Part shown: in pieces, positions 2-15,514 of the stretch
Layout of the letters: every line of letters starts with the position of its first letter
How positions within the stretch are numbered: the stretch's first letter is position 1
Virus genome (UHGV): UHGV-0056727
DNA from: a virus
Strand: one strand, 5' to 3'
Length of the DNA stretch: 15,656 bases
Translations under genes and position numbers: made by a program
The notes under the pieces: generated by a model
What the model saw: only the letters and a program-made list of their open reading frames with translations
The model's database searches: none
What the model was told of the DNA's origin: nothing

Positions 2-382
2 TCGGATGTTATCCGGTGGTGGCGAAAACAACCTTTTGATTTGCAAATCCCGGAGCACCTAGGGAACTGTGTTTTTTGCATCAAAAAGTCAACGCAAAAG
101 CTGGGGCTTGCATGTAAAGACGAACCTGGTCTGATGCGGGTTTTTAATGAACTGGTTACAGGTAAACACGTCCGGGATGGTCACCGAAAGACAAATAAAG
201 ACGTTATGTACCGTGGTCATCTGAGCCTTGACGGGATTGCCAGAATGTATGCCGACAGCGACTACAGAAATTTGTATCAGGCGATGGTGCAAGCCAGGCG
301 ATTCGATACCGGCTCGTGTTCAGAGTCATGTGAAATCTGGGGTGATCAATTGGAGTTGAAATTCGAAGAGGTGGTGGCATGA
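2..382 (+). CDS. Hypothetical protein, C-terminal part (5' end lies upstream of the window); contains CxxC and CxxxC motifs
   Basis: Frame 2 is open from nt 2 with no stop before TGA 380-382, which overlaps the next gene's ATG (ATGA at 379-382). Function not recognised. Confidence 0.5.
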   Translation, partial: SDVIRWWRKQPFDLQIPEHLGNCVFCIKKSTQKLGLACKDEPGLMRVFNELVTGKHVRDGHRKTNKDVMYRGHLSLDGIARMYADSDYRNLYQAMVQARRFDTGSCSESCEIWGDQLELKFEEVVA

Positions 383-1083
383 CAACCAAAATTAACTATC
401 AGGCACTACGTGAGATAGCAAAACAGGCAACACAGGGCGAATGGGTCGCGTTTATTTCGACGGGTACAGGTACGTATGCTGTGCATACGCCCGGTGATAA
501 ACGATGTGAAGATGTTATCAAATGGACCGGCTTTGATGGGCTGAAAAACGCAGAGAACAACGCTCGTTATGTTGCCGCATTCAACCCAAAGGTTGCACTG
601 GAGCTACTTGGTGAAATTAAGCGCCTGGAGGACACAAATATTGATGCTATGTGCCGAATAGCACCGCTTGAGACTAAGCTCGCGGCGCTGGTGGCAGAGA
701 ACGCCGGGCTGAAACACGCAATGGCCGTAACTCTTGAGCATGTGTCGGTCACGGATGCAGGGCAGGCTGGTGTTGCTGCAATGATTATCAACGATGCCCT
801 ACACCACAGCGAAACTCCAGCTACCGATGCTTTTCTGGCTGAAATTCGTGCGGAAGCACGCAACGAGGGGATTAACTATACCGCCAGCCGTCTTGCTGCT
901 GCGTTCAATCACGGATTTATCAATAAGTCTTTGCGTGAAGTTTTCGACGTTACACGCATGATTTTGTCAGCGAAAGAAGAGTTGGCTAATGAAGCGCATC
1001 CGATTGATGGCCTGTCTGGTGAATATGCGGAGAAATCCCTTGAAGAATGGGCGGAACAGATTCGCAAAGGAAGCAGCCAGTGA
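379..1083 (+). CDS. Ead/Ea22-like family protein (234 aa)
   Basis: N-terminus MTTKINYQALREIAKQATQGEW... is the signature I associate with Ead/Ea22-like phage proteins. ATG overlaps the upstream stop. Shares identical 21-23-nt blocks with the ORFs at 2378 and 2662. Confidence 0.7.
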   Translation: MTTKINYQALREIAKQATQGEWVAFISTGTGTYAVHTPGDKRCEDVIKWTGFDGLKNAENNARYVAAFNPKVALELLGEIKRLEDTNIDAMCRIAPLETKLAALVAENAGLKHAMAVTLEHVSVTDAGQAGVAAMIINDALHHSETPATDAFLAEIRAEARNEGINYTASRLAAAFNHGFINKSLREVFDVTRMILSAKEELANEAHPIDGLSGEYAEKSLEEWAEQIRKGSSQ

Positions 1084-1370
1084 ATATCGACACGACAATA
1101 ACGATCGATACGCTCCTAAATACCGGTCTGGCACTTCTCGGTTGGCTTTACATCATGTCCCGTACATGGCGATGGCTGGGTTCCATTTTCCTAAAACAGT
1201 GGAAAAAACGGCGCAAACAGGAACTACGCCAGAAGGCATTAGAAGCGTTCTATGACGCATTTGAGCTTAGCCGTATTGAACCAGGTACAACAGCCAGGAT
1301 AGCGACAAAAGGCGACCTGATGATAGTGATGTTCCGACAGGAGAGAGCAGAGAAAGGGGAATCAGCATGA
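1080..1370 (+). CDS. Small membrane protein (~96 aa from GTG 1080; alternative ATG at 1047), one predicted TM helix followed by a basic segment
   Basis: GTG 1080 overlaps the upstream stop (GTGA) and the stop overlaps the next ATG (ATGA 1367-1370). Hydrophobic stretch LLNTGLALLGWLYIM then WKKRRKQELRQK. Confidence 0.4.
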   Translation: MNIDTTITIDTLLNTGLALLGWLYIMSRTWRWLGSIFLKQWKKRRKQELRQKALEAFYDAFELSRIEPGTTARIATKGDLMIVMFRQERAEKGESA

Positions 1371-2080
1371 AATTTTCCAAATTTTCTGAGTTGGTGAATC
1401 GTATTTTGTCCAACAACCACAGCCATCGTCGCGATATGGATGTAACAATCGTTGTTCATTCGCCTGGCAGCATTGGTTCAACACCTTCAGTTGAGGTTCA
1501 GTCAATTCACGCTGGTTTTGATTGGGATTCCGGGAAAGTGCTTATTTTCCCATCACAGCCACTGACCACGCTAACACCAGAACAGATTACTGATATCACT
1601 GATAGTGTGCGCAAAGGTCAGTCTTGGCACGCATTTCAGGAATACAAGAAGCATCAAGAGCAGTTGGAAAAATTGTCGATTGAACTGGATGCCGCAAAAC
1701 AGCGCATTGCAGAGCTGGATGGTAATCGCACGGCGCTGGCAGTGGAGAATGCCTCAATGAAGCTGTTTATCAGGGGCTGTTGCTACGTGTTTGATGGCCA
1801 GCAGGATGAAATATCTGATGCGTATATCTGCGCAACAGACGGAGGGATGCCGCAAATTCCAGCCACCGACGCTTTCCTGGCTGAAGTTCGGGCGCAGGGG
1901 GTGGATGCTGCTATAGAAGCTGCAAAAAATCTGGTGGCCCAAGAATATGAGTATAAGGATTTCAAAGCGGCGCAGAGTGATTGCTGTATGCACCCTGGTT
2001 CAGACCGGGTAGGGAAGGTTGAAATGACTGAGTGGTTAGTTGACTTTGCTGCCCAGCTTCGCAAAGGAGGCAACCAGTGA
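1367..2080 (+). CDS. Hypothetical protein (237 aa) with a C-terminal module paralogous to that of the 379..1083 protein
   Basis: ATG with upstream AAGGGGA RBS. C-terminal block ...TDAFLAEVRAQG...QLRKGGNQ parallels ...TDAFLAEIRAEA...QIRKGSSQ of the first Ead-like protein. Confidence 0.65.
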   Translation: MKFSKFSELVNRILSNNHSHRRDMDVTIVVHSPGSIGSTPSVEVQSIHAGFDWDSGKVLIFPSQPLTTLTPEQITDITDSVRKGQSWHAFQEYKKHQEQLEKLSIELDAAKQRIAELDGNRTALAVENASMKLFIRGCCYVFDGQQDEISDAYICATDGGMPQIPATDAFLAEVRAQGVDAAIEAAKNLVAQEYEYKDFKAAQSDCCMHPGSDRVGKVEMTEWLVDFAAQLRKGGNQ

Positions 2081-2376
2081 CTGTATGTCTTATTGATAAA
2101 CGTCGACGTGGGCAACAAATACCATCTGTTGAAATGCCGAATCACACATGGTTTTGCGTACTTGATATCGATGGTATGGATACGTTGGTTGACACTCGTC
2201 ATTACTGCGATACCGCAACAGCTACTCCGGCGAAAGCAAAGAAAATGGCTGCTCTGATAGAAAACTGGACTCCACCTGATGGTTGGTGCAATGGGAATGA
2301 TCGAGATTGGCACGAAAAAATGAAGGGCTATATCTGCGATTTTTTACGTAAATGCAACGGCTTCAGGGTGATGTGA
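2077..2376 (+). CDS. Small Cys-containing hypothetical protein (99 aa), GTG start
   Basis: GTG 2077 overlaps the upstream stop (GTGA), the same junction architecture as at 1080. The stop is 1 nt before the next ATG. Confidence 0.4.
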   Translation: MTVCLIDKRRRGQQIPSVEMPNHTWFCVLDIDGMDTLVDTRHYCDTATATPAKAKKMAALIENWTPPDGWCNGNDRDWHEKMKGYICDFLRKCNGFRVM

Positions 2377-2377
2377 T

Positions 2378-2665
2378 ATGACCAAAATTAACTATCAGGC
2401 ACTGCGTGAGGCGGCAGAACGTGCAATTCCGGCAATGGAACGTCTGTCAATGTTGCCAGTTGATGATGATTTGTTAAGTGAACAGGAACTTAAAGATTAC
2501 GGTGTGGATATTGATGCGCTCAACGCCTTCAAATTTCTGGCCGGACCAGAAACCGTGCTGGCGCTGCTGGATGAAAACGAAAGACTGTGTCGCGAGCTGA
2601 TAGCTCGTAATGGTGAGATTGAAGGGCTTCGGAAGTGGGCAGAAGAACGGGAGATGCAACCATGA
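2378..2665 (+). CDS. Short Ead-like N-terminal-domain protein (95 aa)
   Basis: ATG 2378 preceded by GGGTGA. N-terminus MTKINYQALREAAERA... A 23-nt block (2381-2403) is identical to 385-407. Confidence 0.6.
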   Translation: MTKINYQALREAAERAIPAMERLSMLPVDDDLLSEQELKDYGVDIDALNAFKFLAGPETVLALLDENERLCRELIARNGEIEGLRKWAEEREMQP

Positions 2666-3591
2666 TGACTTTTACCAGCGAACAATTAGCTACCTTACGT
2701 AAGATAGCGCAACAGGCAACACAGGGCGAATGGCGTGCATTCATCTCGCCGGACACTGGTACATATGCGGTGCATACGCCGGGGGATGAACGTTGCGGAG
2801 ACATTATCAAATGGCCTGGCTTTGACGGCCAGAAAAATGCAGAGAACAACGCAGAATTTATCGCAGCTTTCAACCCTAAATTAGTGCAGACACTGCTGGA
2901 TGAACGGGAAAGAAACCAGCAATACATCAAACGCCGCGACCAGGAGAACGAGGGGATTGCGCTTACGGTTGGGAAGCTGCGTGTTGAGCTTGAAGCAGCA
3001 AAATCAAAACTCAACGAGCAGCGTGAATATTACGAGGGAGTAATCGCGGATGGAAGTAAGCGCATAGCAGAACTGGAAAAACAATGCGCCGAATGGGAGC
3101 GAAAAGCATTAAGCAACTTTGAAGAGTGTGCTGCGATGGCTGAACGTATCGAAGAGATGCAGACAAAATCTGCACCAGATTCGTTTGGCATCATCGGTGA
3201 AAATATTCGAACACAGGACAATCGAATAACGTCAGATCCCATGTTTTGTGTGTATCAAAAGCGCGAAATCGCTGTTGATGCTGATTATGACCATGACCGG
3301 ATTGTCTGGGTTGACGAAGATGGCAATGAAGCCAATAAACGCCATAGTCGTCGTCTCGAGCTACTTCATGAAAACTTTCGAGAGCCACCAGAAAAATGGC
3401 GGCGCGTTGCTGTGAAAGATATTGATGAATTCGTTACCTGCTGTTTCACCGAACAGGGTTGTAAAGACTACCTGGCAGTCAATGGTCACAATCTTCGCTT
3501 GCCATTTATATATGTAAAAAGCGGTTTCAGGAACGCTGAATATATCGGCATAAGAAACTGGCTTGCTGGCATTCGCATCAAAGGAGAGTGA
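2662..3591 (+). CDS. Ead/Ea22-like family protein (309 aa from ATG 2662) with a coiled-coil middle and a distinct C-terminal domain
   Basis: ATG 2662 overlaps the upstream stop (ATGA). N-terminal ...QQATQGEWRAFISPDTGTYAVHTPGDERCGDIIKWPGFDGQKNAENNAEFIAAFNPK is about 70% identical to the 379 protein. Identical 21-mer at 2714-2734 and 424-444. Confidence 0.7.
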   Translation: MMTFTSEQLATLRKIAQQATQGEWRAFISPDTGTYAVHTPGDERCGDIIKWPGFDGQKNAENNAEFIAAFNPKLVQTLLDERERNQQYIKRRDQENEGIALTVGKLRVELEAAKSKLNEQREYYEGVIADGSKRIAELEKQCAEWERKALSNFEECAAMAERIEEMQTKSAPDSFGIIGENIRTQDNRITSDPMFCVYQKREIAVDADYDHDRIVWVDEDGNEANKRHSRRLELLHENFREPPEKWRRVAVKDIDEFVTCCFTEQGCKDYLAVNGHNLRLPFIYVKSGFRNAEYIGIRNWLAGIRIKGE

Positions 3592-3592
3592 T

Positions 3593-4110
3593 ATGGCGTT
3601 AACACACCGCGAACTCTGTCAGATTGCGTACAAGTTCCTTAAGCGCAACGGGTTCAAGGTTTGCTTTCATGACCGCTTTATAGCTGTAACCAGTACCGGA
3701 GAACAGCCAGATGCTATGGGATTCAGAAATTCAGCATCATGCTTGATAGAGGCGAAGTGTTCTCGTGCTGACTTGTTGGCAGATAGAAAAAAGCGTTTCC
3801 GTAAAAATCCGTCTCTTGGAATGGGCGACTGGCGATATTCTTTATTAGTGAGCCGGGAATTATTTCAGTTGAGGATTTACCTCCCGGCTGGGGATTACTT
3901 CACGTTGTTAACGGAAGAGTACGGAAAGTACATGGATGGCCCAAGGGGAATTGCTGTTGGGGTAATCCTGACGATAAGCCATTTACTGGGAATAAGCAGG
4001 TTGAATGCGATTACATGTTATCTGCATTAAGGCGCATGGAGCTAAGAGGACACCTTAATGAAATATATGACGGTGTAATTGTTAATAAGAAAGAAGGAAA
4101 CGCGGCATGA
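3593..4110 (+). pseudogene. Putative PD-(D/E)xK-motif protein apparently interrupted by a frameshift (frame 2 from ATG 3593, continuing in frame 1 to stop 4108-4110)
   Basis: Strong RBS AAGGAGAG before ATG 3593. PD...EAK motif in frame 2 (EQPDAMGFRNSASCLIEAKCS). Frame 1 is open 3805-4110, has no usable start, and ends on the ATGA overlap with the next gene. The annotated frame-2 ORF ends at 4030, leaving a 77-nt gap. Confidence 0.4.
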
Positions 4111-4463: not shown

Positions 4464-4819
4464 TTAATCGTATCAAGCTGGAGCACATCCTCGAATATGC
4501 CAGGCAGCAGAGGCATATTGGTCAGCATTGTAAAATTCCACCAGGAGATATGGTTGAAATCATGGAGATTGCCATGCGCAAGGCTGGCAACTCTCCGGTA
4601 ACTCCGGATGGTTGGATAAGCTGTAGTGAGCGAATGCCGAATACCAAAACAGCCGTTCTTGTTGCCGTGGAGTTTGACAGGAAAGGTGACTGGCGAATGA
4701 AATGGGCTACTTACATCCCGGGGCATCCTGACGCTAATGATGGGTGGATAATTCCTGGTGCGTCGTGGAAACCGTCACACTGGATGCCGCTACCAGAACC
4801 GCCGCAGGAGGCAAAATGA
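4460..4819 (+). CDS. DUF551-like phage protein (119 aa)
   Basis: C-terminal W...RMP...VLVA...W...SHWMPLPEPP pattern, which I recall as DUF551. Coupled to both neighbours. Confidence 0.65.
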   Translation: MINRIKLEHILEYARQQRHIGQHCKIPPGDMVEIMEIAMRKAGNSPVTPDGWISCSERMPNTKTAVLVAVEFDRKGDWRMKWATYIPGHPDANDGWIIPGASWKPSHWMPLPEPPQEAK

Positions 4820-5076
4820 TGGATGTAAAAGAGAAGGTTTTGCAGGTGATACGTTCCCGTGCTGCCCTGCAAGAGAAAGCTCTCGGCGGGGAATATCCAT
4901 TCACGATAGCAACCTGGAATCTGCGGTTGGCAATGGAGAAGGAATTTCCTGATGAAGAATGGCGTTCGGCAGATTTGCGCAAAATTCTTATGGAGATGGC
5001 TAAAGATGGAACAGTATCCAAAGATACCCATGCCAGCCGGATTGGTCAGGCGGTATGGAGACTGGAGGTGAGATAA
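4816..5076 (+). CDS. Hypothetical protein (86 aa)
   Basis: ATG 4816 with AGGAGG RBS 7 nt upstream, overlapping the upstream stop. The ORF-track start at 4744 is a GTG extension in the same frame. Confidence 0.6.
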   Translation: MMDVKEKVLQVIRSRAALQEKALGGEYPFTIATWNLRLAMEKEFPDEEWRSADLRKILMEMAKDGTVSKDTHASRIGQAVWRLEVR

Positions 5077-5159
5077 TGAGCTGGCCTGAAGCATTCGCAA
5101 CGGTAGGAATTGTGATGGCGGCAGCACTGGGTTTGTATTCAATTTGTCGCTGGTGGTAA
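5076..5159 (+). CDS. Small hydrophobic peptide (27 aa, MSWPEAFATVGIVMAAALGLYSICRWW)
   Basis: ATG overlaps the upstream TAA (TAATG). GGAGG RBS 8 nt upstream. Single hydrophobic helix. Too short to be in the ORF track. Confidence 0.3.
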   Translation: MSWPEAFATVGIVMAAALGLYSICRWW

Positions 5160-5161
5160 CG

Positions 5162-5395
5162 ATGGGAAAATTAACTTTTGTAGTCGAATTTGAGGATGGT
5201 AAAGAGCCACCTGTTAGCGCCAATCTTGATGTTGCTGGTGGCAGGCTTGTTTCGGTTCTATTTGGTGACTACCGAGATGACTTCTTCCAACCAGAAGAAG
5301 TTGATGTAGTGCGAGAGGCATTAAACGAGTTAAGTGTTGATAACGATGATGCTCATGCGGAAATCATCCAAAAAATGGAACTGCTAACTCACTAA
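5162..5395 (+). CDS. Small strongly acidic protein (77 aa, about 18 D/E against 6 K/R)
   Basis: ATG 5162 lies 2 nt after the stop of the peptide ORF, with GGTGG upstream. The track start at 5144 is a TTG extension. Confidence 0.5.
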   Translation: MGKLTFVVEFEDGKEPPVSANLDVAGGRLVSVLFGDYRDDFFQPEEVDVVREALNELSVDNDDAHAEIIQKMELLTH

Positions 5396-5443
5396 ATTAT
5401 CAATTATGGTGCTATCACCTACGACACCGAGAGAAAATTTATA

Positions 5444-5566
5444 ATGTCAAAAGTAAATGTTTTGATTTTTTCAGCAATTGTTGGCTTTGGTTTTACTGCC
5501 GGAGTGCAGATTTATATTACGTGGAAAAAAATCATCAACTACGCATGGAGTTGTTTTATTAAGTGA
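5444..5566 (+). CDS. Possible small single-TM peptide (40 aa) in an AT-rich spacer
   Basis: ATG 5444, hydrophobic core VLIFSAIVGFGFTAGVQIYI then WKKIINYAW. No convincing RBS, so this could equally be a non-coding promoter region. Confidence 0.25.
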   Translation: MSKVNVLIFSAIVGFGFTAGVQIYITWKKIINYAWSCFIK

Positions 5567-5573
5567 GGTAAGT

Positions 5574-5867
5574 ATGTGGAGAGGTAATAATCATGGCAAA
5601 AGCCAGATGATACTTACCGAATATAAGCTAGACCACAAAACCAATAAATCACGCTCAGTATATTTGCTCCGGCACAATAGTCGCGTAAGAAATACCGTGC
5701 TGGAACAAAATCTGACAGTTGAAATGGATAATTACGGGGGCTTCAAGCCAGCAATTTCGCTTGATGATTTTCCTCGTGGTTTAAGCGAAAGAGAAGCAAT
5801 GCTGAAATTAGCAGAATGGCTACAAAGATTAAGCATTGCTATTGAAGATAACTGGTCTGAACCTTAA
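5574..5867 (+). CDS. Hypothetical protein (97 aa)
   Basis: ATG 5574 with GAGGT RBS 4 nt upstream. The track ORF 5478..5867 is the same frame from an upstream TTG. Confidence 0.45.
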   Translation: MWRGNNHGKSQMILTEYKLDHKTNKSRSVYLLRHNSRVRNTVLEQNLTVEMDNYGGFKPAISLDDFPRGLSEREAMLKLAEWLQRLSIAIEDNWSEP

Positions 5868-5873
5868 ATTTAT

Positions 5874-6248
5874 ATGATGACACTAAAACATTTTCTTGAC
5901 CGCCCATTATGGGCGGCAGCCGCAGGCTATGACTTTAATTATATGGATTGCATGTCTTATACTGCCAATGCATACGACCATTCGTTCAGCCTGCTGTTTA
6001 ATTCTTTAAGAATATTGCCGGAAACAGAAGTTGGAGAGCTTCATTTATGGCTATTGGGCTTTATCGCGGCTGTCGTTGGTATTGCTGTATGGCCTTTTAT
6101 TTTCTGGCTGGTGGCTGTTGTAGTGTGGTTTAAGTGCAAGACATACCGGAAAAAGTATTTCTTAGGTGATGGAATGACTGATATTGCCAAAATGAACATT
6201 GAAAAATGGACTAAGGAATGTGAAAAGAAATGGCGCAAAAAGAAATGA
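5874..6248 (+). CDS. Membrane protein (124 aa) with a roughly 30-residue hydrophobic segment and a polybasic C-terminus
   Basis: Segment LHLWLLGFIAAVVGIAVWPFIFWLVAVVVWF followed by KCKTYRKKY...KKWRKKK. AT-rich coding sequence, no clear RBS. Confidence 0.4.
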   Translation: MMTLKHFLDRPLWAAAAGYDFNYMDCMSYTANAYDHSFSLLFNSLRILPETEVGELHLWLLGFIAAVVGIAVWPFIFWLVAVVVWFKCKTYRKKYFLGDGMTDIAKMNIEKWTKECEKKWRKKK

Positions 6249-6871
6249 CCAGAATCACTGAAGAGCGTATATCAGAGATTATTTCCCGTATCGAAATGTA
6301 TGGTCACGGTGCTGGATATACGGCAGATGAAGTATTGGAAATAGCCCAGCAGATGCTGGCCTTGAGACAAAAAGAGCAACATGAAAGTAATACGTGTAGA
6401 TTTAATTTTGAGCAGTGGCTGGAACAGCAACGCGGAAAAATCGATGTGGACTGTGGTTGTGTGTCCACTGAAACATTCATGCACTGGCTGCGGGTAGCTT
6501 ACGAGGCTGGCAACTATCCGGATAGTTCGGTGCCAGCGCCAGGAAAGGGCGTCACCGGTGAACGTATCCGCATTAAGCCGCATGTTTATCGCGAACTGGT
6601 TAACCGTCTCCACGATACAGCGATCAAGTGTGCTGGCACCCAGCAATTACGAGAAAAAATTAGCCGTGTTTTGGGCGACGTTATTACGCCAGATCATCAT
6701 AAACAAGTCGAGAAAAGTGGCCTGGAAAGATGTCACCTTGAGGCGGCATTAAACATTAAGCCAGGGCATACGCTTGGCATTATTGATGCACTATTGGTTC
6801 ATAAGATGGCCAGGGCTTTATTGCCGCTGGTGGCTGATAAGCAAGAGGCGGGCCATGCCAACGAAAGCTGA
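6245..6871 (+). CDS. Hypothetical protein (208 aa from ATG 6245; in-frame ATG at 6230 also possible)
   Basis: ATG 6245 overlaps the upstream stop (ATGA). No recognisable domain. Confidence 0.55.
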   Translation: MTRITEERISEIISRIEMYGHGAGYTADEVLEIAQQMLALRQKEQHESNTCRFNFEQWLEQQRGKIDVDCGCVSTETFMHWLRVAYEAGNYPDSSVPAPGKGVTGERIRIKPHVYRELVNRLHDTAIKCAGTQQLREKISRVLGDVITPDHHKQVEKSGLERCHLEAALNIKPGHTLGIIDALLVHKMARALLPLVADKQEAGHANES

Positions 6872-7139
6872 GTTACAGGCGCGCATAGAGATTCTTGAAA
6901 AAGAGAATGCGAGTCTAAAAGGAATGCTGGCGCGGGCTGAAAGGGAATTATCAGGCAAATTATTGCCAGAAGAACTGCCACCAGCAGATATACCAGATCG
7001 AGTGTCCCGGTGGATGAAGTCTTTTGGTTTACCGTGGGAGGCTTTTTGGTGCTACGAGCATCGCAGATGGTGTGATGAACTTGATAGCAGTTTCCCCTAC
7101 TTTGCGGAAGGGAACACCTGCCCTGAGTGTAGGAGGTAG
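6855..7139 (+). CDS. Small protein (94 aa) with an N-terminal coiled-coil-like segment and a C-terminal CxxH...C...CxxC putative zinc-binding motif
   Basis: ATG 6855 preceded by GAGGCGG. The track ORF 6774..7139 is an upstream extension of the same frame. Motif WCYEHRRWC...CPEC. Confidence 0.5.
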   Translation: MPTKAELQARIEILEKENASLKGMLARAERELSGKLLPEELPPADIPDRVSRWMKSFGLPWEAFWCYEHRRWCDELDSSFPYFAEGNTCPECRR

Positions 7140-7401: not shown

Positions 7402-7412
7402 TCACCATGCTA

Positions 7413-7443
7413 AAATCCCCTCAATTCACAGAGGGGATTTTTG
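7413..7443 (+). terminator. Rho-independent terminator-like hairpin (stem ATCCCCTC / GAGGGGAT, 8-nt loop, followed by TTTTT)
   Basis: Perfect 8-bp GC-rich stem plus a U-run 12 nt after the stop at 7399-7401. The 3' stem arm GAGGGG is also the only SD-like sequence for the ATG at 7447. Confidence 0.55.
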
Positions 7444-7446
7444 TCT

Positions 7447-7713
7447 ATGTTGCATAGAGTTTTATGGAAAAGCGTTATTGTCGGCGCGATACTGGCTATA
7501 TCTGGGTGTGCAATGGTGCAATACAACGACGGTGAAAAGGTAAGCATACAGTCAGATGGTTGGTATGGCCTGGATAGCCTGCAAAAAACCGCAGATAAAG
7601 CCTGTCAGCAATATGGGAAGTCTAAAGCAGTATATCAGCATAGCGCGAACGCTAACCCTCATCTAGCGCCCGGTTCGGGTGTTCAGAATACCATCTGGAA
7701 ATGTGAGCCTTAA
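7447..7713 (+). CDS. Putative lipoprotein (88 aa; signal peptide with lipobox LAISG-C)
   Basis: N-terminus [21 protein letters not shown] is a classic lipoprotein signal. It sits where P1 has a small gene next to hot (possibly lxr, symbol not certain). Confidence 0.6.
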
Positions 7714-10950: not shown

Positions 10951-11035
10951 TTGATTGCTTGCCCGTTCCGGGCCTTTTGACATGTGACTTTCGTTACCCT
11001 CGCGTCAAAAAGAGTTTTTACGAAAGGAAGCATAA

Positions 11036-12229
11036 GTGACCTGGGACGATCACAAGAAGAATTTTGCTCGCCTGGCGCGAGATGGTGGTTACACCATCGC
11101 ACAGTATGCCGCCGAGTTTAATCTTAACCCTAATACCGCACGTCGTTATCTCCGTGCCTTCAAAGAAGACACCAGGACTACGGACAGCCGCAAGCCAAAT
11201 AAGCCAGTCAGGAAGCCACTAAAAAGCATGATCATTGATCACTCTAATGATCAACATGCAGGTGATCACATTTCGGCTGAAATAGCGGAAAAACAAAGAG
11301 TTAATGCCGTTGTCAGTGCCGCAGTCGAGAATGCGAAGCGCCAAAATAAGCGCATAAATGATCGTTCAGATGATCATGACGTGATCACCCGCGCCCACCG
11401 GACCTTACGTGATCGCCTGGAACGCGACACCCTGGATGATGATGGTGAACGCTTTGAATTCGAAGCTGGCGATTACCTGATAGATAACGTTGAAGCGCGG
11501 AAGGCCGCGCGCGCTATGTTGCGTCGGTCCGGGGCCGATGTTCTGGAAACCACTCTTCTGGAAAAGTCTCTTTCTCATCTCCTTATGCTGGAGAACGCCA
11601 GGGATACGTGTATTCGCCTAGTGCAGGAAATGCGCGATCAGCAAAAAGACGATGATGAAGGTACTCCGCCTGAATACCGTATCGCGAGCATGCTAAACAG
11701 CTGTTCCGCGCAGATAAGCAGCCTGATCAACACCATTTACAGCATCCGGAATAACTATCGAAAAGAAAGCCGGGAGGCGGAAAAGCACGCTTTATCTATG
11801 GGGCAAGCTGGCATTGTTAAGCTGGCATACGAACGAAAGCGTGAAAATAACTGGTCAGTGCTGGAAGCGGCTGAATTCATCGAGGCGCATGGAGGAAAAG
11901 TGCCGCCCCTGATGCTGGAGCAAATCAAAGCCGATCTGCGTGCTCCTAAGACCAATACCGATGATGAGGAAAACCAAACAGCATCTGGCGCTCCATCACT
12001 TGAAGATCTGGATAAAATCGCGCGAGAACGGGCCGCCAGCCGCCGCGCTGATGCGGCATTGTGGATTGAGCATCGTAGAGAAGAAATTGCCGATATCGTC
12101 GATACAGGTGGTTATGGTGATGTCGATGCGGAAGGCATATCAAACGAAGCATGGCTTGAACAGGATCTGGACGAAGACGAGGAGGAAGACGAAGAAGTTA
12201 CCCGCAAACTGTACGGGGATGATGATTAA
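11036..12229 (+). CDS. pacA: PacA, small terminase / pac-recognition subunit (397 aa), acidic C-terminal tail
   Basis: GTG 11036 with AAGGAAG RBS. N-terminus [10 protein letters not shown]... The pac hexamer array lies inside the 5' part of the gene, as in P1. Stop overlaps the pacB ATG. Confidence 0.85.
11229..11387 (+). other. pac packaging site: 4 + 3 TGATC(A/G) hexamers, each carrying a Dam GATC, flanking the cleavage region
   Basis: TGATCA at 11229, 11236, 11248 and 11263; TGATCG at 11359; TGATCA at 11371 and 11382. This is the arrangement described for P1 pac. Confidence 0.8.
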
Positions 12230-13738: not shown

Positions 13739-14590
13739 CTATTGCGCGCTTTCGGGGTTGCTGTTTACTGGCTGCCCCTTCTTAGTTTTACGGCTGCGCG
13801 TAACTGATGCGGCTGATTTGACCTTTTTCTCTTCGCGAGTGATGGCAATTTGTTTTTTTACATTTTCAATATCTGCCAGGCGATATATTTTTGCCTGCGG
13901 CCAGCGGTCGCAGATGATCGGTTCTATAGAGTCATAAAGGCTAAATTTTGCTTTCTCGAATTCACCGTTGATGATGATTCCATCACGGAGAGTTTCATCG
14001 CAGATAAACACACCACACAGCGGCACATGGTAACTAACTGATTTACCATCATTGTAGTTAGGGCTACTGGAAATGTAATGGACGCGCAGCATTGTTTCGC
14101 TAAAGCCGTGTACACGCATACGGAATTTTTCATCCTCCGGGTACTGCTTCATTAGCTCTTTTGTTGCTTCCAGGTTCTCTATGTATTTCGCACTGTGCTC
14201 ATTGATCCCCGCGCTTTTCTGGATGCGAATGTCCTTATCAATCAGATGAATAATGCGGCCAGCGGTCATGTTGACGCTGTTCACAGCTTCTGTCTGATAA
14301 GTAGTAACCTTACGCACACCGCGAAGGATGTTAGGCACTGGATATAAAATAGTCTTTGGGATATTGAGGTCTGGGTACTGTTCCAGTTCCCGCGCCATTA
14401 AAGTCCATTTATCAATTTCAGCCTGAATGCTGTCCGTTTCTTTGAACGGCAGAACGACAACCGGGCGAACAGGACGACCGTCGCTGGCGGCATCAACGTG
14501 TTGGGCGCGTGCAACAGCTTTTTTTAGAAAGAGATCCCTGAAGCTGACGAACTCCTGGTACAGTTGTTCGCCGTAGACATAATTTATCAT
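13739..14590 (-). CDS. c1: C1 repressor of lysis (283 aa)
   Basis: MINYVYGEQLYQEFVSFRDLFLKK... matches my recollection of P1 C1. Strong GGAGGAGG RBS. Convergent with pacB, 25 bp between stops. Confidence 0.92.
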   Translation of the reverse strand: MINYVYGEQLYQEFVSFRDLFLKKAVARAQHVDAASDGRPVRPVVVLPFKETDSIQAEIDKWTLMARELEQYPDLNIPKTILYPVPNILRGVRKVTTYQTEAVNSVNMTAGRIIHLIDKDIRIQKSAGINEHSAKYIENLEATKELMKQYPEDEKFRMRVHGFSETMLRVHYISSSPNYNDGKSVSYHVPLCGVFICDETLRDGIIINGEFEKAKFSLYDSIEPIICDRWPQAKIYRLADIENVKKQIAITREEKKVKSAASVTRSRKTKKGQPVNSNPESAQ

Positions 14591-14910: not shown

Positions 14911-15148
14911 AATTATGCCTCACTGTATTGACAACACAGAGCCTGAAGCTCTGACCTACTGTTTCACCCATGATCCATGCTGGGGTAATCTAACAACATT
15001 GCGCTGTGTGTAAGATGAGCAATGCATAGCTGTAATGCCGTTGTATAAGGTTTCCCTGTTTGCTCATTTCCTTCTGAGCCGCTCTACAACGCTGAAGACA
15101 CATTAAATAGTGAATCCAAAGTCGTATTACGAAACGGCGGCAAAACTA

Positions 15149-15165
15149 TAATTTATTAGAGCAAT
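15149..15165 (-). promoter_or_regulatory. C1 operator (16/17) within a TTGACA-N15/16-TATAGT-like promoter reading toward coi and c1
   Basis: Minus strand reads TTGACAATTGCTCTAATAAATTATAGTT; the operator fills the promoter spacer. Confidence 0.65.
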
Positions 15166-15231
15166 TGTCAAACAACTATGAAAAACAATCCAGTTTTTGG
15201 CTGGTGGAGTGGGATTTTTCTCTCAAAATTT

Positions 15232-15248
15232 ATTGCTCTAATAATTCT
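15232..15248 (+). promoter_or_regulatory. C1 operator-like 17-mer ATTGCTCTAATAATTCT (15/17)
   Basis: Faces the operator at 15149-15165, 43 bp before loxP. Confidence 0.6.
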
Positions 15249-15291
15249 TGATTTTTATGCGCAGCTGGACGTAAACTCCTCTTCAGACCTA

Positions 15292-15325
15292 ATAACTTCG
15301 TATAGCATACATTATACGAAGTTAT
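15292..15325 (+). other. loxP site (ATAACTTCGTATA-GCATACAT-TATACGAAGTTAT)
   Basis: Exact 34-bp canonical loxP: 13-bp inverted arms around the 8-bp asymmetric spacer. Confidence 0.95.
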
Positions 15326-15396
15326 CTTAAGGGTTATTGAACATGATTAATTTACCTGTAAATCCATACAGTTCAATACCTTATCAGGTCAAATAG

Positions 15397-15418
15397 TGAT
15401 CACTTGATCATTTGATCA
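15397..15418 (+). repeat. Three TGATCA hexamers (Dam sites) phased at exactly 8 bp
   Basis: TGATCA at 15397, 15405 and 15413, followed by an 8-bp inverted repeat GCGCTACG...CGTAGCGC (15424-15482). Probably a methylation-sensitive promoter region downstream of loxP. Confidence 0.55.
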
Positions 15419-15514
15419 AGGTTGCGCTACGTAAAATCTGCGAAATGTTGGCAGTGTTAGTGCTCCAGATTTCGCGTAGCGCACTTAGCACCACCAATCA
15501 ATCAGAGGTGAAAA

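Follow-up and report, generated by a model that had tools for sequence, protein, structure and literature searches.

Independently shuffled accessory genes in a low-GC tract of a P1-like phage-plasmid, within a putative C1-controlled early operon

The operons of P1 (OpmgT/Op88) and P7 (Op(hea)) resemble the locus described here in position, in having a C1 operator and promoter, in low GC content and in the replacement of genes. The locus is the hypervariable pmgT-humD region, "highly variable region 8" of P1-like phage-plasmids (PMC9603915), and a low-GC "region of difference" has been described at the same place (PMC6906374). The genes that canonical P1 carries here, pmgT, pmgU and pmgV, are scored as not essential to lytic growth (PMC10695390). 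Canonical P1 has only pmgT-pmgU-pmgV (~1.4 kb), whereas the lineage studied here has ~9 kb of lambdoid-type genes. In lambdoid phages, the exo-xis, ea and nin regions hold delayed-early, nonessential mosaic genes (Ea22, Ead, eaa, DUF551). Our locus is like these regions in its surrounding gene families, in the homologues of its 97-aa and 40-aa genes, in gene-by-gene mosaicism and in its coupled small ORFs. It differs from them in lying in a P1-type plasmid-prophage, probably under C1 control and not N/Q antitermination, and its three proteins have no homology to any characterised exo-xis protein.

The window analysed here is a stretch of 15,656 nt from the virus genome UHGV-0056727. A first-pass annotation had placed it in the P1 family, and comparison confirms that it is a P1-like phage-plasmid, with pNJS001-1 as the closest plasmid (99-100% identical). 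Within it, positions 5396-6250 had been described as an AT-rich, moron-like insert. Our analysis indicates that this segment is a set of independently shuffled small accessory genes, that is, ordinary phage mosaicism, and the best explanation overall, which we consider likely, is that these genes are shuffled within a C1-controlled early operon.

Gene layout and the surrounding operon

The three ORFs called in the segment are all present on the + strand. They encode a single-TM peptide of 40 aa (5444-5566), a soluble protein of 97 aa (5574-5867) and a membrane protein of 124 aa (5874-6248), which match phrog_5525 (E=1e-23), phrog_1258 (E=2e-49) and phrog_2638 (E=2e-63), respectively, over the full length of the profiles. 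Every one of the aligned relatives, in sets of 28 and 34, matches the same PHROGs. Most of the interval 5396-5573, which had been taken for the only sizeable gap in the operon, is filled by the 40-aa ORF, and this ORF is conserved as a gene. The true spacer is 48 nt long (5396-5443) and is the sole real gap within the segment; the spacers at 4031-4106 and 5077-5161 are both longer. The chain of overlapping genes, said to be broken at this point, in fact continues through it, with the segment genes coupled to those around them. The 97-aa gene has a GAGG Shine-Dalgarno sequence that overlaps the 40-aa stop codon, its distance to the 124-aa gene is 6 nt, and the 124-aa gene is joined to the next gene by an ATGA (or 19-nt) overlap. 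Upstream of the segment, and in the same low-GC tract, the + strand gene at 5162-5395 encodes a very acidic protein of 77 aa (net charge -12; phrog_3876, E=8e-53). This gene has a GC content of 0.419 and a GC3 of 0.32, and its pN/pS is 0.03-0.14 against SJ46 and pZX35-94k.

In SJ46, RCS47, P7, P1 and pNJS001-1, the locus lies between pap and hot/humD/phd/doc on the same strand. The C1 operator is upstream of the window and hence was read in the nearest relative, pNJS001-1, where ATTGCTCTAATAAATCT (1 mismatch) is found immediately 3' of pap. The operator/promoter region of pNJS001-1 is 98% identical to the annotated regions of P1 OpmgT/Op88 (P1pmgT/P2pmgT), P7 Op(hea) and SJ46. At the other end, an intrinsic-terminator-like hairpin with a T run (7412-7444, + strand) ends the long + strand operon; its 11-pair stem at window 7412-7441 corresponds to 11017-11046 of locus L016. 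The sole + strand promoter-like site between the operator and this hairpin overlaps the operator. Up to L016 11017, the + strand has no strong predicted terminator, and a weak 6-pair hairpin at L016 10365 is downstream of the segment. The remaining genes of the operon are Ead/Ea22, DUF4752, DUF7739, and DUF551 or eaa-type genes.

The operon would therefore be read as starting at the C1-controlled OpmgT (former Op88) just after pap and ending at the 7412-7444 hairpin, with the segment ~7 kb into a polycistronic unit of ~9 kb. In this lineage, the operon has taken the place of canonical P1's pmgT-pmgU-pmgV. The segment genes are translated by coupling and have no recognisable transcription signals of their own, and from these two features we infer that they would stay unexpressed in the lysogen and come on once C1 repression lifts at infection or induction. 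Control by the operator over the whole 9 kb is suggested by homology with P1 and P7 together with the absence of predicted terminators. Judged from the sequence, early C1-controlled expression of the segment genes is somewhat more probable than not.

Lambdoid phages also carry morons, of which gp15 of HK97 is an example. The segment might accordingly be a true moron, an autonomously transcribed, acquired cassette whose membrane proteins, expressed in the lysogen, protect it by superinfection exclusion or abortive infection. It shares with morons a deviant base composition, an accessory nature, with presence varying among P1-like elements, and two small membrane proteins; in addition, the 40-aa gene follows the 48-nt spacer and has a TATAAT hexamer immediately 5' of its ATG. 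However, the promoter of its own that the first-pass annotation thought likely did not emerge. A consensus scan, which could miss weak or non-canonical promoters in AT-rich DNA, found no + strand sigma-70-like site in 4800-6900 and no + strand -35/-10 pair meeting the scan criteria. Terminator-like + strand hairpins were likewise absent from 4800-6900, so that none lies between 5396 and 6700 and the segment has no terminator on either side. In the spacer at 5396-5443, the promoter and terminator scan and the searches for C1 operators and late-promoter boxes found no recognisable promoter, operator or terminator, and neither a C1 operator nor an Lpa late-promoter box was found in the segment. 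Coupled to their neighbours, the genes lie deep inside an operon that has a conserved C1 operator at its head; they have no PADLOC or Pfam defence matches, they travel separately, not as one unit, and they take the place of other genes instead of being inserted between them. Their homologues occur in early replication/recombination arrays, among them arrays in Proteus Gorganvirus phages and in a 100-kb Alteromonas phage, which does not suggest a role restricted to the lysogen. Defence of either kind, expressed in the lysogen, is also made less likely by the position of the genes inside a C1-repressed early operon. A true moron is therefore unlikely.

Base composition and mosaicism

The segment was said to be more AT-rich than its flanks, and the sliding-window analysis bears this out. 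GC is 0.385 in 5396-6250 vs 0.478 across the remaining window. An 855-bp scan has its global minimum at 5430, ~3.3 sd under the mean, and 5396-6250 itself ranks 55th for low GC among 14,802 overlapping 855-bp windows. The GC3 of the three genes is 0.386 vs 0.481 in the other + strand genes (Fisher p=0.003), and the contrast sharpens to p=1e-4 once the 77-aa gene is added. Gene by gene, GC3 is 0.32-0.42 in the low-GC tract and 0.44-0.54 in neighbouring genes. The left edge of the tract is at ~5250, and the tract thus takes in the 77-aa gene. In other genomes, the GC of the homologues matches that of their own surroundings (0.47-0.53). As to cis elements, the tract contains no tandem repeats and no Rfam family, and its direct and inverted repeats are short and at chance level.

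The AT-richness might also have arisen without any foreign origin, from the make-up of membrane and basic proteins together with relaxed codon selection, in weakly expressed genes that are old residents of P1-like elements. The biggest deficit falls at first codon positions (GC1 of 0.42 in the segment genes vs 0.58 in the other + strand genes), which reflects amino-acid content, and part of the AT-richness is therefore due to amino-acid composition and not to foreign origin. The GC3 of the 124-aa gene (0.42) is near that of some neighbours. Between P1-like plasmids, the alleles share 90-99% identity, a sign that the genes are not recent arrivals in the lineage. Against this, GC3 is also significantly reduced, both with and without the 77-aa gene, and the GC3 of the gene for the soluble 97-aa protein is 0.36 here but 0.50-0.61 in its Salmonella and Klebsiella prophage homologues. 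Many P1 relatives lack these genes altogether. Composition and relaxed selection as the whole cause are quite improbable. The low GC at synonymous sites would instead mark alleles acquired, by recombination at gene boundaries, from a phage background of lower GC.

P1, P7 and D6 do not have the three genes. At least part of the segment is present in 309 of ~601 P1-like plasmids, and the 97-aa and 124-aa genes are found together in 221. This presence/absence test across P1 relatives supports the earlier view that the genes are accessory and not housekeeping. The proposal of a horizontally acquired accessory cassette holds with respect to deviant composition and variable presence, but not with respect to the cassette as one unit, because each gene is also found without the others. 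Module junctions fall at gene borders (~5568 and ~5855-5867), and in other genomes the segment genes have other neighbours. In RCS47 an ASCH gene, and in L017 and L018 genes for 69-aa and 249-aa proteins, fill the same slots; in L017 and L018, other genes come after the 97-aa gene. That relatives hold other genes in the same slots indicates gene-by-gene replacement, not clean insertion. The replaceable unit extends beyond the segment to the whole ~9-kb operon.

We consider it very likely that the segment consists of mosaic accessory genes without their own transcription signals. The three genes, or four with the 77-aa gene, would have been drawn from the lambdoid "exo-xis / ea / nin" early gene pool. 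In Uetakevirus-type phages, the ea22/eaa region holds homologues of the 40-aa peptide that are likewise 40 aa long and 47-50% identical, and lambdoid prophages carry homologues of the 97-aa gene in their PL and nin regions.

Properties of the encoded proteins

The first-pass annotation could assign none of the three proteins to a known family, and our searches agree, since PHROGs 5525, 1258 and 2638 are all catalogued as function-unknown families. Pfam, NCBIfam and PADLOC returned nothing significant for the 40-aa, 97-aa and 124-aa proteins. The PADLOC defence models gave zero matches at E<=0.1 among five proteins tested, the best of the profile searches against PDB sequences reached only E=0.46, and no literature on the protein accessions or PHROG numbers turned up.

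The 40-aa peptide, annotated as J46_0090 in SJ46, is a single-TM peptide as first described, with one hydrophobic segment (hydropathy 1.83 over residues 7-25). Its ORF is intact across alleles, and the pZX35-94k allele carries an in-frame 9-nt insertion. The selection signal on this gene is weak (pN/pS 0.76). The 97-aa protein has zero hydrophobic segments, consistent with its description as soluble. Its family comprises 129 homologues in Enterobacterales prophages, nearly all of 97 aa and with a conserved MWRG start, and the gene is under purifying selection (pN/pS 0.11-0.26). The AF2 model is confident (pLDDT 86) and has a four-stranded beta meander followed by a long C-terminal helix; structural comparison of this predicted fold gave no informative match.

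The 124-aa protein has the hydrophobic segment and polybasic tail that had been reported for it. The segment spans 31 residues (57-87) with a hydropathy of 2.6 and a conserved P-F-x-F-W kink. The N-terminal part has a net charge of -4 and the C-terminal part, the tail, a net charge of +8, so that the positive-inside rule predicts an N-out/C-in topology. The AF2 model is all-helical and poor (pLDDT 57); it is therefore not usable for a fold search, and the predicted topology is taken solely from the charge bias. An alignment of 28 family members (A3) has the conserved N-terminal motif KHFxDxPxWAAAAGYDFNxxDC. The family is small, with 35 clusters at 50% identity among 1.84 billion representatives, and is confined to gammaproteobacterial phages among matches with an identified source. 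Homologues are carried by other temperate phages, Proteus Gorganvirus phages and a 100-kb Alteromonas phage, where they occur without a 97-aa homologue and beside exonuclease, Dam, NinB and primase genes. The neighbours of distant homologues were checked as cryptic homologues of the partner gene, and none is related to it. A holin or other lysis protein was rejected as a candidate, as the neighbours everywhere are early, replication, recombination or methylase genes and never lysis genes.

A CptA/YgfX toxin (Pfam PF07254, Cpta_toxin) was also considered for the 124-aa protein and rejected. In both, a basic region comes after a hydrophobic segment, and this yields a weak alignment (E=0.08, 13.5 bits vs a cut-off of 27.3 bits). 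The match is not family-wide, occurring in 2 of 28 family members at E>=0.026 amid scattered matches to other TM families, and there is no conserved partner gene. The toxin/immunity pair once suggested for this locus, with a CptA/YgfX-like 124-aa membrane toxin and the 97-aa protein as its neutraliser, is very improbable: the two genes are adjacent, tightly spaced and co-occur in the 221 plasmids, and the Pfam match exists, but its score is far under the cut-off, the 97-aa gene is often without the 124-aa gene, the upstream neighbours of 124-aa homologues are dissimilar to the 97-aa protein, and the absence of conserved two-gene linkage, with each gene recombining and occurring independently, contradicts a pair.

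Possible roles and significance

At low confidence, the genes may encode "host-handling" proteins that are made early and are dispensable. The site of action of both the 40-aa peptide and the 124-aa protein would be the inner membrane, and the working part of the 124-aa protein might be its conserved N-terminal motif of ~30 residues. The 97-aa protein, small and soluble, would bind a protein of the host or of the phage. Any specific biochemical role is doubtful. Early-expressed membrane superinfection-exclusion proteins include Imm and Sp of T4 and Sim of P1. As small early inner-membrane proteins, these offer a plausible analogy for the 40-aa and 124-aa proteins, and an analogy only, since no sequence or profile similarity to the segment proteins was detected. 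A tentative joint reading, for which the chances are small, is that the 124-aa protein represents an uncharacterised class of early inner-membrane effectors, and that the 40-aa, 97-aa and 77-aa proteins are independent host-modulating or anti-defence factors. If this were so, the 124-aa protein, with its motif perhaps in the periplasm, could block DNA entry by competing phages, or alternatively could counter, in the lytic cycle, a host defence associated with the membrane.

The genes and the variable locus are already known and catalogued, and the mosaicism is real but ordinary; no long-standing question is made newly testable by these results. Their main value is a correction, in that the low-GC dip does not mark a defence island complete in itself. 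What it marks is the AT-richest portion of a long early operon that is replaceable, putatively C1-controlled and already documented as variable in P1-like phage-plasmids. As widespread "known unknowns", the three proteins are present in ~300 sequenced phage-plasmids of E. coli and Salmonella, and a functional assignment of any one of them would therefore annotate many genomes. The gain in annotation would come chiefly from the 124-aa protein, with its conserved motif, and from the confidently folded 97-aa orphan.

Placement and base composition of the segment

The AT-rich segment (window 5396–6250, + strand) is best viewed as three accessory genes of unknown function that are already catalogued and shuffle independently, and its host locus as a known hypervariable, low-GC and probably C1-controlled early operon of P1-like phage-plasmids. 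Sequence similarity places the window in a P1-type phage-plasmid, as the first-pass annotation had assumed. In megablast searches, Salmonella phage SJ46, Escherichia phages RCS47 and vB_EcoM-813R1 and many E. coli plasmids of ~90–100 kb had stretches 95–100% identical to the window. The top match, pNJS001-1 (NZ_CP114131.1), showed 99% identity over 90% of the window and 100% identity to the segment. In annotated relatives the segment lies on the + strand, with pap on one side and hot/humD/phd/doc on the other; lpa, pacA, pacB and c1 are farther downstream.

The pmgT–humD interval belongs to the eight 'highly variable regions' that have been described in P1-like phage-plasmids and linked to low GC (PMC9603915). 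The pap–pmgU region diverges from P1 in one compared P1-like plasmid, and recurring regions of difference were placed at borders with AT-rich loci (PMC6906374). For lytic growth of P1, the genes pmgT, pmgU and pmgV score as nonessential (PMC10695390). Elsewhere the operon carries Ead/Ea22-like (three copies), DUF4752, DUF7739, DUF551 and eaa-type genes, a pool known from the lambdoid exo-xis/ea region (PMC10834534). The Ead/Ea22-like ORFs (379–1083, 2378–2665 and 2635–3591, +) share one operon, and the overlapping pair may represent pieces of a gene that was rearranged. In the PLSDB entry of pNJS001-1, part of the stretch 379–3591 has no listed genes.

The AT-richness is real and statistically supported. 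A sliding-window check gave a GC of 0.385 for the segment vs 0.478 for the rest of the window, ~3.3 sd under the mean of 855-bp windows (rank 55 among 14,802 overlapping windows, the lowest being at 5430). GC3 was 0.386 in the three segment genes vs 0.481 in other + strand genes (Fisher p=0.003; p=1e-4 with the 77-aa gene at 5162–5395, +, included). The shift at first codon positions was even larger (0.42 vs 0.58), so the AT-richness is partly a matter of amino-acid content. The start at 5396 has to be revised, because the low-GC tract begins at ~5250 and takes in the 77-aa gene. In Salmonella and Klebsiella prophages, homologues of the 97-aa gene share the composition of their surroundings (GC 0.47–0.53, GC3 0.50–0.61), whereas the P1-borne allele is lower (GC 0.40, GC3 0.36), which favours acquisition of the segment alleles from a lower-GC background.

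The 77-aa protein has a phrog_3876 match; a pN/pS of 0.03–0.14 shows strong purifying selection, and the GC3 of its gene is likewise low (0.32). It is strongly acidic (18 D+E vs 6 K+R, net −12), a composition that recalls DNA-mimic-type early proteins, to which homology was not found. A second AT-rich dip (15000–15450), where GC falls to 0.34, contains matches to the C1 operator at 15149–15165 and 15232–15248, upstream of c1 (13739–14590, − strand), and is presumably the immC control region.

The three genes and their products

The three ORFs have the features first described, and each matches a PHROG profile over its full length. The 40-aa ORF (5444–5566, +) has one hydrophobic segment and matches phrog_5525 (E=1e-23), the 97-aa gene product (5574–5867, +) has none and matches phrog_1258 (E=2e-49), and the 124-aa protein (5874–6248, +) has a 31-residue hydrophobic stretch (residues 57–87) and matches phrog_2638 (E=2e-63). 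All are function-unknown families, and the proteins matched no family in Pfam, NCBIfam or PADLOC, consistent with the earlier failure to assign them.

The 97-aa family has 129 homologues in Escherichia, Salmonella, Klebsiella, Citrobacter, Erwinia and others. With few exceptions they are 97 aa long, and a conserved MWRG start sets the beginning of the gene at 5574; its pN/pS of 0.11–0.26 indicates purifying selection. The 40-aa ORF is already annotated in SJ46, and Uetakevirus-type phages have 40-aa homologues with 47–50% identity. In plasmid pZX35-94k (L029 1985–2116) the allele is open at 13% nucleotide divergence, with an in-frame 9-nt insertion (43 aa). A pN/pS of 0.76 is a weak sign of constraint. 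The 43-aa allele has many amino-acid changes outside the conserved core FSAIVGFGFTAGVQ; the ORF is kept open, though under loose constraint only.

The 124-aa gene has few close relatives; when 1.84 billion representatives were scanned in full with an HMM, 35 clusters emerged, all of ~105–130 aa. A 28-sequence alignment revealed a conserved N-terminal motif, KHFxDxPxWAAAAGYDFNxxDC (P11, A14 and G18 invariant), a conserved P-F-x-F-W kink within the hydrophobic segment and a variable basic tail. The N-terminal part has a net charge of −4 and the tail +8, for which the positive-inside rule would predict an N-out/C-in topology. The AF2 model was poor (pLDDT 57). The CptA membrane toxin was rejected as a candidate: Cpta_toxin scored E=0.08 and 13.5 bits vs a 27.3-bit cut-off, and matched weakly in only 2 of 28 relatives amid scattered matches to other TM families. 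Homologues include vB_YenS-P840 ORF53 (Yersinia phage; L019 3501–3860) and VB_PmiS-Isfahan gp07 (Proteus phage; L020 3477–3830). The public labels 'conotoxin' and 'ribonucleotide reductase large subunit' on these homologues look like annotation errors, because these proteins are ~117–119 aa and belong to phrog_2638.

Gene coupling and transcription

The first-pass annotation saw a broken chain of overlapping genes, with 5396–5573 as the only sizeable gap. With the 40-aa ORF a real gene, the spacer is only 48 nt (5396–5443), and those at 4031–4106 and 5077–5161 are longer. Downstream coupling is tight: the 40-aa gene ends in a TGA that overlaps the GAGG Shine-Dalgarno of the 97-aa gene, the 124-aa gene follows the 97-aa gene after 6 nt, and the next gene overlaps by ATGA (RCS47 annotation) or 19 nt (SJ46 annotation). 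An unannotated 34-aa ORF, METGGEIMSWPEAFATVGIVMAAALGLYSICRWW (5055–5159, +), with one hydrophobic segment and no PHROG match, takes up the greater part of the 85 nt in front of the 77-aa gene and may or may not be a gene.

The proposal of an own promoter did not hold. A consensus scan of 4800–6900 gave no + strand sigma-70-like site or terminator-like hairpin, the C1-operator matches of the window are confined to the vicinity of lpa, the inside of pacB and the surroundings of c1, and no Lpa late-promoter box was found within the segment. Directly after pap, pNJS001-1 has a one-mismatch C1 operator. This region is 98% identical among P1, P7, SJ46 and pNJS001-1 (230-bp alignment); in the P1 record the operator is called OpmgT (former Op88) and overlaps two predicted promoters, P1pmgT and P2pmgT, and in the P7 record it is called 'Op(hea)'. 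A strong hairpin with a T run lies at 11017–11046 of the pNJS001-1 region L016 (window 7412–7441). Between operator and hairpin, the + strand has a single promoter-like site, which overlaps the operator, and a single further hairpin, which is weak (6 pairs). We infer that the segment is probably transcribed as part of a ~9-kb C1-repressed early operon. The best inference from sequence is early expression and dispensable host-handling roles, with the 40-aa and 124-aa proteins at the membrane and the 97-aa protein in the cytoplasm. A lysogen-expressed defence role, such as the superinfection exclusion or abortive infection suggested earlier from base composition, small membrane proteins and the supposed promoter, is less likely.

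A 44-aa membrane-protein ORF (MNTAFKIIMAAIYFWLFSITFGGIVAHG...) directly follows OpmgT upstream of the window (L016 2053–2140 / L001 2279–2413); it is ~98% conserved in P1, P7, SJ46 and pNJS001-1, and everything downstream is variable. In the stretch 7412–7713 (+), the strong terminator-like hairpin AAAATCCCCTC...GAGGGGATTTTTGT closes the long operon. Directly 3' of it and just before hot, an ORF with its ATG at 7447 has a lipoprotein signal (VGAILAISG|C) and a phrog_7757 match; it resembles a stand-alone accessory gene more than the segment does.

Distribution and modularity

At this locus canonical P1 carries pmgT-pmgU-pmgV and nothing else, and P7 and D6 are without the segment; its presence varies among P1 relatives. 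Its reading as a single insert is not supported: BLAST junctions recur at gene borders (~5568 and ~5855–5867). RCS47-type elements have an ASCH-domain gene in place of the 77-aa and 40-aa genes, and some plasmids retain the 97-aa gene followed by unrelated 69-aa and 249-aa genes. Outside P1-like elements, the 97-aa family is found among varying neighbours in lambdoid prophages, in their PL (N-Ral-...) and nin regions. There the 124-aa family adjoins exonuclease, Dam, NinB/RusA, O/P or helicase/primase genes, in temperate phages of Yersinia, Klebsiella and other enterobacteria and in Proteus Gorganvirus phages, with a distant homologue in a 100-kb Alteromonas phage. No similarity to the partner gene was found among neighbours of these homologues. 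This differing company indicates independent modules rather than a cassette, and a toxin/immunity pair, as had been suggested for these small membrane proteins, is therefore less likely. In PLSDB, pacAB is present in 601 records; some part of the segment occurs in 309 of all records and at least 80% of it in 221. Among complete E. coli genomes, 308 of 5,426 carry the segment, and 313 of its 317 places are plasmid-borne.
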